From assembly GCA_963835915.1 (NCBI GenBank), contig CAWIHE010000004.1, forward strand, positions 696,248-760,247: DNA of 64,000 nucleotides. The letters run 5' to 3'. Below are positions 12,455 to 64,000 of the stretch, piece after piece. The translations under genes and the position numbers were made by a program. The DNA comes from Candidatus Uhrbacteria bacterium (GTDB taxonomy: Bacteria > Patescibacteriota > Patescibacteriia > 2-12-FULL-60-25). The stretch's first letter is position 1; the number at the start of each line of letters is the position of its first letter. The notes beneath the pieces were generated by a model, which saw only the letters and a program-made list of their open reading frames with translations, made no database searches and was not told the DNA's origin.

Positions 12455-13867
12455 ATGTTAAAAATCTACAACACCCTGACCCGCCGCATTGAGCCGATAA
12501 CTCCCATCACCGCAGGGAAGATCGGCTTTTACGCGTGCGGCCCCACGGTCTACCAGCGCGCGCACATCGGCAATCTCCGCGCCTACATCATGGAAGATAT
12601 CCTCCGGCGGACGCTCGAGCTGATCGAGGGGGACGAGGTGAAGCACGTGATGAACATCACGGACGTCGGCCATCTGATCGGTGACGAGAGTTTGGGCGAG
12701 GACAAGGTTGAGAAGTCGGCGCGCGAGCAGGGGAGGGATGCATGGGAGATCTCGCGCGAGAATACGGAGACGTTTTTGAAGGACCTCGATGCGATCAACG
12801 TCCTGCGTCCGACGGCGATGCCGAAGGCGACGGATCACATCCAGGAGCAGATTGATCTCGTAAAGATTCTTGAGGAGAAGGGATTCACGTATAAGATTAC
12901 CGACGGCATCTACTTCGATACGTCGAAATTTCCGTCGTACGGATCTCTCTCGGGCCAGAAGCTCGATGAGAAGGAGGCGGGCGCGCGCATCGAGGCGAAT
13001 CCCGAGAAGAAGAATCCGACGGACTTCGCGCTCTGGAAATTCTCTCCGTCCCACTCACCCACTCATCCACTCATCCACTTACCCAAACGGCAGATGGAGT
13101 GGAAGTCGCCGTGGGGCGTCGGGTTCCCCGGATGGCACATCGAATGCTCGGCGATGAGCCGGAAGGAGCTTGGTCAGCCGTTCGATATCCATGCGGGAGG
13201 CGTCGACCACATCGCGGTCCACCACGAGAATGAGATTGCGCAATCCATGGCTGCGTACGGTGTCTCGCTCGCGAATTATTGGATGCACGTTGAGTTCCTC
13301 ATGGTCGACGGGAAGAAGATGTCAAAGTCGATCGGGAATACGTACACGCTGGATGATCTCAAGGCGAAGGGGATCGATCCGATTGCGTTCCGCTTCTTCG
13401 TCCTTGGCGCACACTACCGATCCAAACAGAACTTCACATGGGAGGCGATCGCCGGCGCGCAGAGCGCGATGGATAAACTTCGGCGCGCCGTTCGGTCATG
13501 GCAGAAAGCGGACGGCGAAGGCGTCGGCGCGGTCGAAGAGGAATTCCGGAATGCGATGCTGAACGACCTCAATACGCCGGAAGCGCTCGCGATTCTATGG
13601 AAGCTCGTAGACGGGGATTTCGCGACACAGGCGAAATCAACATCCCTCCTCTTTATCGATCGCATCCTCGGCCTCAATCTTTCGGCGATCATCAGCATTC
13701 CCTTCGATGTACCGAAAGACATCAAAAAAATTGCCGATCTCCGCTGGGCCGCGCGCAAGAACGGCGACTGGGACGAAGCAGACAAGCTCCGCCAAGAGCT
13801 CGCGGGGCACGGGTGGACAATGCTTGACGGGAGGGACTCGTACTCGCTGGAGCCGGATAGTCGGTAG
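12455..13867 (+). CDS. cysS: Cysteine--tRNA ligase
   Basis: GFYACGPTVYQRAHIGNLR (HIGH region), GWHIECSAM, KMSKS. Carries an in-frame repeat-encoded insert SPSHSPTHPLIHLP. Confidence 0.95.
   Translation: MLKIYNTLTRRIEPITPITAGKIGFYACGPTVYQRAHIGNLRAYIMEDILRRTLELIEGDEVKHVMNITDVGHLIGDESLGEDKVEKSAREQGRDAWEISRENTETFLKDLDAINVLRPTAMPKATDHIQEQIDLVKILEEKGFTYKITDGIYFDTSKFPSYGSLSGQKLDEKEAGARIEANPEKKNPTDFALWKFSPSHSPTHPLIHLPKRQMEWKSPWGVGFPGWHIECSAMSRKELGQPFDIHAGGVDHIAVHHENEIAQSMAAYGVSLANYWMHVEFLMVDGKKMSKSIGNTYTLDDLKAKGIDPIAFRFFVLGAHYRSKQNFTWEAIAGAQSAMDKLRRAVRSWQKADGEGVGAVEEEFRNAMLNDLNTPEALAILWKLVDGDFATQAKSTSLLFIDRILGLNLSAIISIPFDVPKDIKKIADLRWAARKNGDWDEADKLRQELAGHGWTMLDGRDSYSLEPDSR
13050..13084 (+). repeat. 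Family H octamer repeat (CCACTCAT-like), in frame inside cysS
   Basis: ccactcacccactcatccactcatccacttaccc. The same unit forms the hairpin at 62230-62307 and recurs in dnaG at 63670-63708. Confidence 0.8.
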
Positions 13868-13920
13868 TTAGTAGTAATAGTAGGAAATGTCTCATGCGTC
13901 CTACTACATACTACATACTA
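13865..13920. repeat. Family E hairpin downstream of cysS
   Basis: tagttagtagtaatagtagga - loop - tcctactacatactacatacta (~17/21 complementary). Confidence 0.7.
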
Positions 13921-13928
13921 AATAAAGG

Positions 13929-13985
13929 GCCCGATACGTCCGTACACACCATCCGGAGGGGTGGATGAGAGATGACGTATCGGGC
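13929..13985 (-). terminator. Long-loop hairpin downstream of the tRNA pair (terminator-like)
   Basis: gcccgatacgtc (13929-13940) pairs with gacgtatcgggc (13974-13985). The minus strand continues cctttattt. Confidence 0.45.
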
Positions 13986-13989
13986 TTCG

Positions 13990-14062
13990 AAGGGGAGCGA
14001 GGGATCGAACCTCGGACATCCAGACCTGGTGACTGGTGCTCTACCGACTGAGCTACTCCCCT
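13990..14062 (-). tRNA. tRNA, most consistent with tRNA-Trp (CCA) but with a non-canonical anticodon loop
   Basis: Hand fold: acceptor AGGGGAG/CTCCCCT, D arm GCTC-AGTCGGTA-GAGC, T arm CGAGG-TTCGATC-CCTCG, anticodon arm CCAGT-CACCAGG-TCTGG (A at position 33, U31-U39 mismatch). No encoded CCA. Confidence 0.7.
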
Positions 14063-14087
14063 TTAAGGAAAGAACGATTCCGTTCGG

Positions 14088-62157: not shown

Positions 62158-62193
62158 CCCGAACGACCATCAAGAACTCCTCGCACCGCTCCC

Positions 62194-62227
62194 GCCCCTG
62201 CAGTTTCGACTGTGGGGGCCTTTTTTA
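62194..62227 (+). terminator. Rho-independent terminator
   Basis: gcccctgcag-tttcga-ctgtgggggc followed by cttttttatt. Confidence 0.65.
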
Positions 62228-62229
62228 TT

Positions 62230-62307
62230 GAGTGGTTGAGTGGATGAGTAGATGAGTGGGGTTCCTTTGATGCCCACTCATCTACTCATCCACTCAACCA
62301 CTCATCC
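62230..62307. repeat. Family H hairpin (GAGTGGAT octamer arms) upstream of dnaG
   Basis: gagtggttgagtggatgagtagatgagtgggg-ttcctttgatg-cccactcatctactcatccactcaaccactcatcc. Confidence 0.9.
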
Positions 62308-62348
62308 ATTACACTTGATTCCTCCTGCATTCATGGCACACTGTGCGC

Positions 62349-64000
62349 ATGGACGCCGTCGAAGAAGTGAAGTCCCACCTGGACATCGTCGATATCGCCG
62401 CGGAATACCTCCAGCTCAAGCCCGCCGGGAGCGGGAGTTTTAAGGCAAACTGCCCGTTCCACCAGGAAAAGACGCCGAGCTTCTACGTGAACCGCCAGCG
62501 GCAGAGCTGGCACTGCTTCGGGTGCGACAAGGGCGGGGACGTCATCTCGCTCGTCCAGGGGATCGAGGGGATGGATTTTCGGGATGCGCTCGCGCACCTC
62601 GCCATGAAGGCCGGGGTCACGCTCCCCGCGTTCAACACCGAAGCGGCGGGGGAGCGGAAGCGGCTCCAAACCGTCAACGACCTCGCATCACGATTCTTCA
62701 GATCCATCCTCCTCCAATCGCCGGATGCGGGACATGCCCGCGAGTATGCGGAGAAACGGGGGATCGACGACCTTACGGGAGACCTCTTTCGCATCGGCTA
62801 CGCGCCGAATTCCTGGGACGCGCTCACGACCGCGCTCAAAGCGAAGGACGTTACGGATGACGAACTCCTCCGCGCAGGCCTCACCGCTCCCAGCCAGCGC
62901 GGGACCGGATCGTACGACCGGTTCCGTGACCGATTGATGTTCGCGATCCATGACGTTCACGGGAACATCATCGGCTTTACGGGACGTCTCTTGAATCCGG
63001 ACGCGAAAGAAGCGAAGTACGTCAACACGCCCGAGACGGCCGTCTTCAAGAAATCTTCAGTCCTCTACGGTCTCGACAAGGCGAAAGGAGATATCAAATC
63101 AAAAGACCTCTGCGTCCTCGTCGAGGGCAACATGGACGTCGTCTCGAGCCACCGCGTCGGCATCGCAAACGTCGTCTGCCCCGGCGGCACGGCGCTGACC
63201 GCGGACCAGCTCCGGCTCATCGCGCGCTTCACGAAGAACCTCGCAATCGCCTTTGACGCGGATGCGGCCGGCGTCAACGCGACGCTCCGCGGACTCGACC
63301 TCGCGCGCGCGGAGGATTTCTCAATCCGCATCATCTCGCTCCCGGACGGCATCAAAGACCCTGACGAGGCGATTGCCAAGGATCCGGCGATTTGGACCAA
63401 TGCGATCCGCGACGCCGTAGACATCATGGAGTGGGTCTTCCGTCTCGCGTTCAAAGGGAAAGACCTCTCCAACCCGAACGACAAGCGCGAGATCGCGCGC
63501 ATCGTCCTTCCGGAGGTCAAACGCATTGCAGATCCGATCGTCCGCGACCACTGGATCCAGAAGCTCGCGAAAGCGCTGGAGACGAGTGAAGATGCGCTCC
63601 GGGATGCGCTCAAAGGCGTTAAAGGATTAGGCCAGCGGGCCAGCGGGCCAGCGGGCCAGCGTCAGGAGGCCCACTCATCCACTCATCCACTCACCCCCTC
63701 ATCTACCCGAGGCCGCGACCTGGCCGAGCGCATCGTCTCCATCATCCTCTCGAAACAGGCTCCGCGGGCGTGCATGCCGGCGAATCTCCATGACCTCCTG
63801 CCCGGCGACCTCCGCGCCCTTTACATCCGCGAGACCGAGGGTTATGATGTCCCCCGATTCAGTGAGGGATCACAACCGGCGGACCCTTTAGCGGCCCCGG
63901 ACCAAACGATCGATCACCTCATGAACATGCTCGCGATCAGGTTCGATCGCGATTACCCAAACCAAACCGCGGATGCGCTCGCATCCGAAATCGAGGCAAG
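62349..64000 (+). CDS. dnaG: DNA primase DnaG; 3' end outside window. Not in the ORF track because no stop falls within the window.
   Basis: Frame is open from ATG 62349 to the window end. Zinc finger CPFHQEKTPSFYVNRQRQSWHCFGC; TOPRIM VLVEGNMDVVS...DADAAG. Repeat-encoded insert at 63630-63708. Confidence 0.93.
   Translation, partial: MDAVEEVKSHLDIVDIAAEYLQLKPAGSGSFKANCPFHQEKTPSFYVNRQRQSWHCFGCDKGGDVISLVQGIEGMDFRDALAHLAMKAGVTLPAFNTEAAGERKRLQTVNDLASRFFRSILLQSPDAGHAREYAEKRGIDDLTGDLFRIGYAPNSWDALTTALKAKDVTDDELLRAGLTAPSQRGTGSYDRFRDRLMFAIHDVHGNIIGFTGRLLNPDAKEAKYVNTPETAVFKKSSVLYGLDKAKGDIKSKDLCVLVEGNMDVVSSHRVGIANVVCPGGTALTADQLRLIARFTKNLAIAFDADAAGVNATLRGLDLARAEDFSIRIISLPDGIKDPDEAIAKDPAIWTNAIRDAVDIMEWVFRLAFKGKDLSNPNDKREIARIVLPEVKRIADPIVRDHWIQKLAKALETSEDALRDALKGVKGLGQRASGPAGQRQEAHSSTHPLTPSSTRGRDLAERIVSIILSKQAPRACMPANLHDLLPGDLRALYIRETEGYDVPRFSEGSQPADPLAAPDQTIDHLMNMLAIRFDRDYPNQTADALASEIEA
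63630..63708 (+). repeat. Tandem octamer GCCAGCGG x4 plus a family H arm, in frame in dnaG
   Basis: ggccagcgggccagcgggccagcgggccagcg ... cccactcatccactcatccactcaccccctcatctaccc encodes GQRASGPAGQRQEAHSSTHPLTPSST. Confidence 0.85.

Follow-up and report, generated by a model that had tools for sequence, protein, structure and literature searches.

Short tandem arrays of 7- and 8-nt units run in frame through core genes of a Candidatus Uhrbacteria bacterium, probably as tolerated passengers of a repeat-generating process

Results

The window and its tandem arrays

The stretch of DNA analysed here, referred to as the window, comprises 64,000 nucleotides (nt) of contig CAWIHE010000004.1 (positions 696,248 to 760,247) from a Candidatus Uhrbacteria bacterium. 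The nearest named relatives of its UvrB, CysS and DnaX proteins belong to metagenome-assembled genomes of Candidatus Uhrbacteria and Patescibacteria. The window is rich in short tandem arrays of 7- or 8-nt units, a minority of which lie inside protein-coding genes. A first reading, made from the letters alone (the sequence-only reading), had placed such arrays in five essential genes, and the identity of all of them was upheld: cysS (12455-13867), dnaX (20385-22070), clpB (33094-35784, minus strand), uvrB (56650-58812) and dnaG (62349 to beyond 64000) each reached or exceeded the curated cut-off of an NCBIfam equivalog model. Arrays were located by Tandem Repeats Finder together with direct reading of the sequence, and every array named in that first reading was found in its place. 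In addition, the reading frames of the five genes continue through their arrays, as had been proposed.

Arrays with three or more copies numbered 38 in the window, 24 of them with period 7 and 14 with period 8. First-order Markov simulation gave an expectation of about 0.25 (0.15 and 0.10, respectively). The same scan of the window yielded no array of three or more copies with a period of 9-12. Copy numbers were between 3 and 5, with a mode of about four units, which corresponds to an array of about 30 nt. Tandem Repeats Finder produced 53 rows of period 7 or 8, about 42 of them in the approximately 8.2 kb of intergenic DNA and 11 in genes. Array loci occupy 25 of the 42 intergenic spacers, and 18 of these 25 loci begin at 50 nt or less from a stop codon. 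The window contains at least 20 distinct units, and G-runs are absent from most of them.

Arrays inside reading frames

Insertions were called against the closest relatives, namely P0002 for UvrB, P0122 for CysS and P0242 for DnaX (78-96% identity). The closest relatives come from JGI sample 3300075153 (UvrB 94% and CysS 87-89% identical), and the insertion boundaries are those of the protein level.

Two arrays were found on the plus strand of uvrB. The first is a perfect AGTCACG array of 4.4 copies (57933-57963) encoding VTSHESRVTS, and the second consists of 3.9 copies of CCAAACC (57979-58005). When solved structures of UvrB are aligned, they cover residues 2-427 and 456-688 of the protein without loss, and residues 428-455, which comprise both arrays and their spacer, form a clean insert of 28 amino acids (aa) where the second helicase domain begins. 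The UvrB of P0002 (94% identical by BLAST, 96% in the alignment) is without this insert and has ISAAKSPDERNQ where that of the window reads ISA-VTSHESRVTSSDRIRPNPKHQTPNASS-RNQ, which represents a gain of 20 aa (+60 nt). In the AlphaFold 2 (AF2) model, with a mean predicted local distance difference test (pLDDT) score of 70.6, residues 430-454 are coil with pLDDT below 50.

The cysS array (13050-13085, plus strand) is made of 4.5 copies of CCCACTCA/CCACTCAT, a unit of the family called H. Its peptide is SPSHSPTHPLIHLP, and it encodes in frame SHSPTHPLIHLP, placed in the loop flanked by WKFS and KRQMEW. At this place CysS relatives read WKFSPxDxKRQMEW and the closest one, P0122 (87-89% identical), reads WKFSPAGQKRQMEW, so that the window protein has 11 extra residues (+33 nt). 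The array falls in a loop when CysS is aligned to solved structures, and residues 200-208 of the AF2 model (mean pLDDT 87.7) are coil with pLDDT below 50.

The arrays of dnaX are located beyond the core profiles, in the variable linker of the protein. The first internal one (21596-21626, plus strand, 3.9 copies of GAGTCAAC, family C, 100% matches) encodes SQRVNESTSQ. The sister protein P0242 is without the 9-aa segment SQRVNESTS, giving the window a net gain of +27 nt. The second one (21679-21712, plus strand, 4.2 copies of ACCTACGC, 100% matches) encodes LRTYAPTHLRT and lies directly N-terminal to the conserved C-terminal domain; the sister DnaX has an inferred (CGCCCTCA)n array exactly at the position of the (CGCACCTA)n array of the window. 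The 52-nt spacer between both arrays (21627-21678) holds a lineage-specific insertion of 9 aa, IGPAAAQID (which contains GCGGCCGC), that is not tandem. Upstream, a degenerate TCCCTCCG-like stretch of period 8 (21502-21531, plus strand, 78% matches) lies in the Pro/Ser-rich linker; a comparable Pro-rich segment in the sister protein makes its status as a recent array doubtful. Finally, 2.4 copies of GAGTCGT at the 3' end of the gene (22055-22071, plus strand) encode the last codons, PSRES, and the TGA stop. This PSRES C-terminus is common to P0242 and is thus older; other relatives end in GGEIVA or GGQVVE.

In dnaG, four perfect copies of GGCCAGCG (63630-63661, plus strand, 100% matches) encode GQRASGPAGQR and begin 10 residues past the end of the primase core profile. 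They are followed by 4.1 copies of CCACTCAT of family H (63671-63703, plus strand), encoding HSSTHPLTPSS. Compared with a 71% identical DnaG these arrays bring no net gain, the linker of the relative being equally long and unalignable. A relative has GSGPA aligned with the GGCCAGCG array, which might point to a local seed of this array, but similarity at the DNA level is weak and this part of the alignment is not independent.

The array of clpB (33106-33136, minus strand; GTCGTGA... on the coding strand, with a variant unit GTCACGA) lies in the C-terminal tail. The match to TIGR03346 ends at residue 878 of 896 and the array is contained in the 18-aa tail beyond the profile. No partner arm was found for it. 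A further gene not mentioned in the sequence-only reading, coding for an HD-domain protein (1106-2020), carries AGTCACG arrays in frame on the plus strand at 1271-1332, in its basic N-terminal tail, with about two units at 1271-1285 and three at 1312-1332.

Read from the alignments, the arrays of uvrB and cysS and the first one of dnaX are recent insertions, because the closest relatives are without them. The proposal that the in-gene segments are lineage-specific insertions therefore holds for these three, but not for dnaG, where no length was added, nor for the older PSRES tail of dnaX. Their expected placement in loops and linkers was borne out by the structural alignments and low-confidence coils of UvrB and CysS, and by the position of the others beyond core profiles. 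The grouping of units had to be revised: two different units had been put together as family D, namely AGTCACG, which occurs in uvrB and in the HD-domain gene, and GAGTCGT (ACTCACG when read on the opposite strand), found at the dnaX end and in the clpB tail. Likewise, the in-gene units belong to intergenic families in the case of H, C and D, but ACCTACGC, CCAAACC and GGCCAGCG are unique within the window and have no intergenic copy in it.

Reading frame and stop codons

The net gains of +33 nt in cysS, +60 nt in uvrB and +27 nt in the first dnaX array are all multiples of three. As the units have 7 or 8 nt, only net lengths in multiples of three persist, and this constitutes a survivorship filter. 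The earlier suggestion of selection for frame after insertion agrees with these values, which reflect such a filter and are not evidence of switching.

An array of 7- or 8-nt units cycles through all three frames every three units, so that the orientation found in a gene must be free of stops in every frame. All internal arrays are in a stop-free orientation, and the reverse orientation of CCACTCAT (H), GAGTCAAC (C), AGTCACG and ACCTACGC contains stop codons. GAGTCGT has TGA on the coding strand and is confined to 3' ends, those of dnaX and clpB. In clpB the variant unit GTCACGA removes the TGA of the pure array, and the frame ends four codons later. Orientation was rejected as a statistical test: in a given orientation some 75% of random units have no stop, and the observed 8/8 is thus not significant by itself. 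Stop-free orientation is a logical constraint, not a test.

Intergenic hairpins

Between genes the arrays are present as inverted pairs, with at least 17 paired loci. Folding z values were between -3.8 and -15.2 at 19 of the 20 intergenic loci tested, the remaining one being a weak locus (3020-3080) with z = 0.0. The six in-gene array regions gave z = -1.7 to +1.7. Since these regions do not fold, the description of the in-gene arrays as single hairpin arms is correct, with the exception of the dnaX end, whose 22055-22071 array is the left arm of a hairpin and pairs with 4.4 copies of ACTCACG (22150-22180, plus strand). This hairpin (22055-22180; -66.2 kcal/mol, z = -8.1) holds in its loop a conventional hairpin followed by a T-run. 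Another example of a hairpin extending into the 3' end of a gene is that of pgi (24442-25779), the stop codon of which is overlapped by a left arm of 3.4 copies of AGTAAAT (25775-25798, plus strand).

Two hairpins are the paired counterparts of in-gene arrays. The one of family H, 40 nt upstream of the dnaG start, consists of 3.9 copies of TGAGTGGA and 4.4 copies of CCACTCAT (62229-62308, plus strand; -65.2 kcal/mol, z = -12.4) and corresponds to the in-gene H arrays. The one of family C, with 3.8 copies of AGTCAACG and its complement (23099-23187, plus strand; z = -6.8), corresponds to the GAGTCAAC array of dnaX. The most abundant family is GGAAGCT, represented by a hairpin of four GGAAGCT and four AGCTTCC units (24329-24405, plus strand) and by further copies at 29939-30014, 31300-31373, 33013-33087, 41279-41344 and 46690-46742. 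In this family a variant unit, GGAATCT, has its mirror image (AGATTCC) where the opposite arm pairs with it, and all loops differ. A search of the window against Rfam assigned the hairpins to no family and returned three tRNAs only.

Cores resembling GGATCC or GATCCG were seen in several hairpin loops (~3033-3040, 23140-23150, 44139-44156 and 56591-56611), and also in the spacer between the two uvrB arrays (57964-57978), e.g. CGGATCCGA.

Arrays in other lineages

In a relative with an 82% identical UvrB, 12.7 kb contained no 7- or 8-nt arrays, and cysS is followed there by an ordinary 20-bp palindrome. Among the metagenome UvrB matches listed, with identities of 66% or less, the median density of such arrays was 0 in 81 other Patescibacteria loci. 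The picture was different in L082/L084, whose CysS is 65% identical: hairpins of heptamers or octamers occur there at five positions syntenic with the window (in front of dnaJ, dnaX and pgi, and behind cysS and dnaX), all with different units. In the comparison of the window with L082 these syntenic hairpins are located at 703-784, 11408-11475, 15354-15439, 17150-17237 and 19604-19680; their position is conserved and their sequence is not. Moreover, the CysS of L082 has a perfect TACCGACT array of four copies in the same loop as that of the window, beginning on ancestral Pro-Thr-Asp codons, and its dnaX carries 3.9 copies of ATGCCCA at the same junction between linker and domain as the second internal array of the window.

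The highest density of 7- and 8-nt arrays, 10 per 10 kb, was seen in the more distant L106, where heptamer arrays lie in frame in dnaX (three arrays), recR (two arrays) and the genes for HMG-CoA reductase and a GHMP kinase. This contig (CAZDTO010000017.1) is labelled 'uncultured Gammaproteobacteria'; its CysS is 52% identical to Patescibacteria CysS and the label is probably wrong.

At protein level, arrays were detected as 9-aa windows identical to what a perfect 7- or 8-nt array encodes. This detector was positive in 14 of 360 UvrB, CysS and DnaX homologues, with about 0.02 expected by chance (approximately 2x10^5 windows). Counting the imperfect array of the window, arrays were present in the CysS of six lineages, with six different units, and all of them were placed between WKFS and KRQMEW. 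The three lineages with arrays in UvrB have them between RPI(T/S) and (S/N)QIDD, and the dnaX junction holds different 7- or 8-nt arrays in three lineages. At one and the same site the lineages have wholly different encoded peptides (PLIHSSTH, TDLPTYRL, PAASSQQ and others). Full-text searches of the literature found no report of such arrays in Uhrbacteria or the candidate phyla radiation.

The same UvrB/CysS loops also receive inserts that are not arrays, in P0023, P0041, P0083 and P0018 and in P0165 and P0179, with the recurring peptides SFARRG...GGAGGG in UvrB and GRSFDSAQDD in CysS. These look like translated dispersed repeat elements, which suggests that the loops may be general landing sites.

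Discussion

A proposed lineage-specific process filtered by selection

The arrays seen in genes pass three filters, those of net length, orientation and position, and are therefore probably tolerated and mostly young passengers. We propose, with a probability of about 0.6, that they are passengers of a lineage-specific repeat-generating process and are filtered by selection, instead of being programmed switches. In the proposed mechanism, a process acting across the whole genome would make arrays of about 30 nt in which a 7- or 8-nt unit is repeated around four times. The intergenic copies would sit as inverted pairs, forming long hairpins just 3' of stop codons, and unpaired copies would land in genes. 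In these, the first filter would retain a net added length that is a multiple of three; the second, the strand orientation that is stop-free in all three frames; and the third, positions in disordered loops, hypervariable linkers or C-terminal tails. Selection would remove the in-gene products with a shifted frame or disturbed folding. Replication slippage and template switching may both generate the arrays and turn them over. Arm-to-arm copying within a hairpin would explain the mirrored variant units, and copying between arrays at different loci would explain the shared unit families. The mirrored GGAATCT and AGATTCC units would be expected either from such arm-to-arm copying or from selection for pairing. 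The L082 CysS array, placed on ancestral Pro-Thr-Asp codons, appears compatible with growth from a local seed.

Several observations weigh against this explanation. Unit families shared by unlinked loci also fit a mobile element: GGAAGCT occurs at six loci with the same variant unit, H at three, and AGTCACG and GAGTCGT at two to three each. The tight copy number of about four is not predicted by simple slippage. All six CysS arrays lie in one loop, and targeting at the DNA level could be involved besides selection. Finally, perfect arrays are mostly genic (by hand count of the Tandem Repeats Finder rows), and this bias fits their youth or could be due to selection for the encoded peptide.

The nearest parallels to such passengers are the Rickettsia palindromic elements, taken up below, and heptamer arrays, which are already known from Xanthomonas (GGGAATC) and Nostoc (GGGGAYT), together with the short tandemly repeated heptamers of cyanobacteria (Rehm et al., 2015; PMC4692102). 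In Xanthomonas, arrays of four units are preferred, about 70 convergent inverted pairs are present, stop codons are close by and coding sequences show a deficit (PMC4692102). The window resembles them in its intergenic architecture: in both cases units of 7 nt in about four copies are strongly biased to intergenic DNA and scarce in coding DNA, lie within ~50 bp of stops, and frequently form convergent pairs able to give stem-loops. However, Xanthomonas and Nostoc have one G-rich family per genome, interpreted as a former of G-quadruplexes, whereas in the window there are many units of 7 and 8 nt that are not G-rich, nearly all of them paired, with a notable minority in frame inside essential genes. 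As the units are not G-rich, the explanation of the four-unit preference by G-quadruplexes is inapplicable here.

A possible mobile-element origin or dedicated writing process

The main rival of the passenger reading is a mobile-element origin. According to it, arrays and hairpins would be non-autonomous elements, similar to MITEs (transposable elements of the miniature inverted-repeat type) or repetitive extragenic palindromic (REP) sequences, moved by an enzyme encoded elsewhere, and the in-gene copies would be in-frame half elements. The presence of the same unit families at several unlinked loci, with GGAAGCT hairpins sharing the variant GGAATCT, speaks for it, and so does the fact that arms bracket arbitrary content: unrelated loops, the terminator-like hairpin of 22055-22180 and 3 kb with three genes. 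Identical sites are also reused across lineages. However, no target-site duplications were seen by eye at the hairpin flanks, and the loops are unrelated within a family, unlike those of MITE copies. Neither a transposase nor a REP-associated tyrosine transposase (RAYT) nor a reverse transcriptase was found among the 30 window ORFs (open reading frames) covered by the domain scans (Pfam or NCBIfam), the window being 64 kb of a genome of about 1 Mb. In addition, the set of units is lineage-specific, several in-gene units are unique in the window, and the five syntenic L082 hairpins with different units look rewritten in place and not inserted. Shared families with unrelated loops, together with fixed hairpin positions with changing units, favour rewriting in place over copy-and-paste. 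We thus regard a mobile element as possible but unlikely.

The closest precedent for dispersed repeats of this type within genes is that of the Rickettsia palindromic elements, which, in the summary given in PMC10969869, are selfish repeats that occupy protein-coding genes in frame (Ogata et al., 2000, 2002). They share with families H, C and D of the window the occurrence both between genes and in frame in unrelated housekeeping genes, the positions compatible with folding and the reduced genome of the host. As summarised there, the Rickettsia elements are palindromic, have ~150 bp and encode a conserved peptide per family; in contrast, the in-gene pieces of the window are unpaired, non-palindromic tandem 7- or 8-nt units of 17-36 nt in all, and their peptides are lineage-specific. 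Homology to the Rickettsia elements was neither sought nor seen.

A bolder proposal is that several Patescibacteria lineages (Uhrbacteria and relatives) possess a dedicated and so far undescribed array-writing process, which would place runs of about 30 nt, composed of arbitrary 7- or 8-nt units, at preferred DNA contexts. It would keep rewriting intergenic hairpin stems where they stand, and would time and again add new disordered peptide loops at identical places of essential enzymes (one loop each in CysS and UvrB and one junction in DnaX). It would act as a directed generator of novelty, not as slippage plus selection. We consider this doubtful and put it forward tentatively.

Adaptive peptides, contingency loci and artefacts

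Another explanation is that the array peptides, with their periodicity of 7 or 8 residues, are adaptive in themselves, adding new disordered linkers or interaction motifs to replication and repair proteins, as proposed for Borgs. The same loops are indeed reused in several lineages, arrays are enriched in dnaX, dnaG, uvrB and recR, and those inside genes are often perfect. Nevertheless, the sequences are wholly different between lineages at one site and absent from the closest relatives, the same loops take unrelated types of insert, and the units are common to hairpins that do not code, all of which makes such a function improbable. Borg tandem repeats (Schoelmerich et al., 2023; PMC9879509) extend over regions of at least 50 nt, have in-ORF units that are all divisible by three and nearly always have units unique to one locus. 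Like the arrays of the window, they are genome-specific, young, often perfect and both genic and intergenic, and the genic ones add disordered segments leaving the ORF intact. Unlike them, the 7- and 8-nt units of the window rotate the frame, the arrays have about 30 nt, and H, C, D and GGAAGCT recur at several loci.

The sequence-only reading had also considered the arrays to be potential phase-variable sites, in which slippage of one unit would switch or alter essential products. Contingency loci have long tracts, usually of six or more units, near the 5' end of dispensable surface, restriction or virulence genes, and give ON/OFF variants. The arrays of the window share with them a non-triplet tandem repeat inside a reading frame; several are perfect, and such tracts can slip. 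Moreover, the dnaX site, which has different homogeneous arrays in sister lineages, reveals turnover. However, the in-gene tracts have only 2.4-4.5 units and are found 595-1329 nt from the gene start or at the 3' end, not at 5' ends or promoters. The genes, of translation, replication and repair, are essential and single-copy in a genome of ~1.0 Mb, and a change of one unit would shift the frame and truncate CysS, DnaX, UvrB or DnaG. The protein database has a single sequence each for UvrB, CysS and DnaX of this organism. In addition, the four-unit heptamer arrays of Xanthomonas and Nostoc are described as largely stable between species (PMC4692102). Phase variation is therefore unsupported and very improbable.

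Although the sequence is a metagenome-assembled genome and repeats are prone to misassembly, an assembly or sequencing artefact is ruled out for practical purposes, since all frames are open through the arrays and the same architecture appears in unrelated assemblies (L082, L106, P0008, P0014 and others); besides, the arrays have 36 nt or less, below typical read length, and identical proteins are present in NCBI and ENA (UvrB and DnaX) or in NCBI, Logan and ENA (CysS). A phage origin was also considered and rejected: exact 21-mers of the GGAAGCT and H arrays do turn up in viral contigs, but these are few and unrelated and their G+C contents are very different, so that no link exists.

Significance

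Tandem repeats of non-triplet units that arise within reading frames are normally eliminated or else serve as ON/OFF switches. In this bacterium with a minimal genome they have been kept as in-frame loops of core replication, repair and translation enzymes, and this has happened repeatedly at the same structural positions in independent lineages. The interest of these arrays rests on this recurrent and independent use of loops and on the unexplained rule of four units of 7 or 8 nt. They provide a natural map of the places where CysS, UvrB, DnaX, DnaG and RecR tolerate insertions, and a protein signature searchable in metagenomes, consisting of peptides with a periodicity of 7 or 8 residues that back-translate to a single 7- or 8-nt unit. 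They also offer a test system for the origin of hairpins with periodic stems and of four-unit arrays, a question left open for Xanthomonas and Nostoc.

Other features of the window

A 38-nt inverted repeat (35785-35822 and 38839-38876), 97% complementary and composed of GCGTCGG/CCGACGC heptamers, brackets 3,016 nt with three genes (one of the TP_methylase family, metG and one that is CvpA-like). Inserted DNA may have split a hairpin here, or the repeat may be a potential boundary of an inversion or cassette.

The stretch between cysS and the next syntenic gene (13990-16190) has a lower G+C content (0.50) and contains a pair of tRNA genes (13990-14062 and 14088-14162, minus strand), as well as two ORFs on the minus strand, one of them ATP-grasp-like. 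Neither ORF appears at the syntenic loci in L082 and in the sister contig, the gene tables of which list proteins only, and the stretch is probably an inserted island. A second stretch of low G+C content (0.475), with short and weakly scoring ORFs, was observed at 50000-52000. Finally, a tandem repeat of 180 nt (1.9 copies, 96% matches) at 7022-7365, followed by 15-nt repeats, lies inside a large ORF (6701-8695) that codes for a Ser/Thr/Gly-rich repeat protein without a Pfam match and is a neighbour of the gene for a 1,103-aa protein with a Peptidase_S74 domain.

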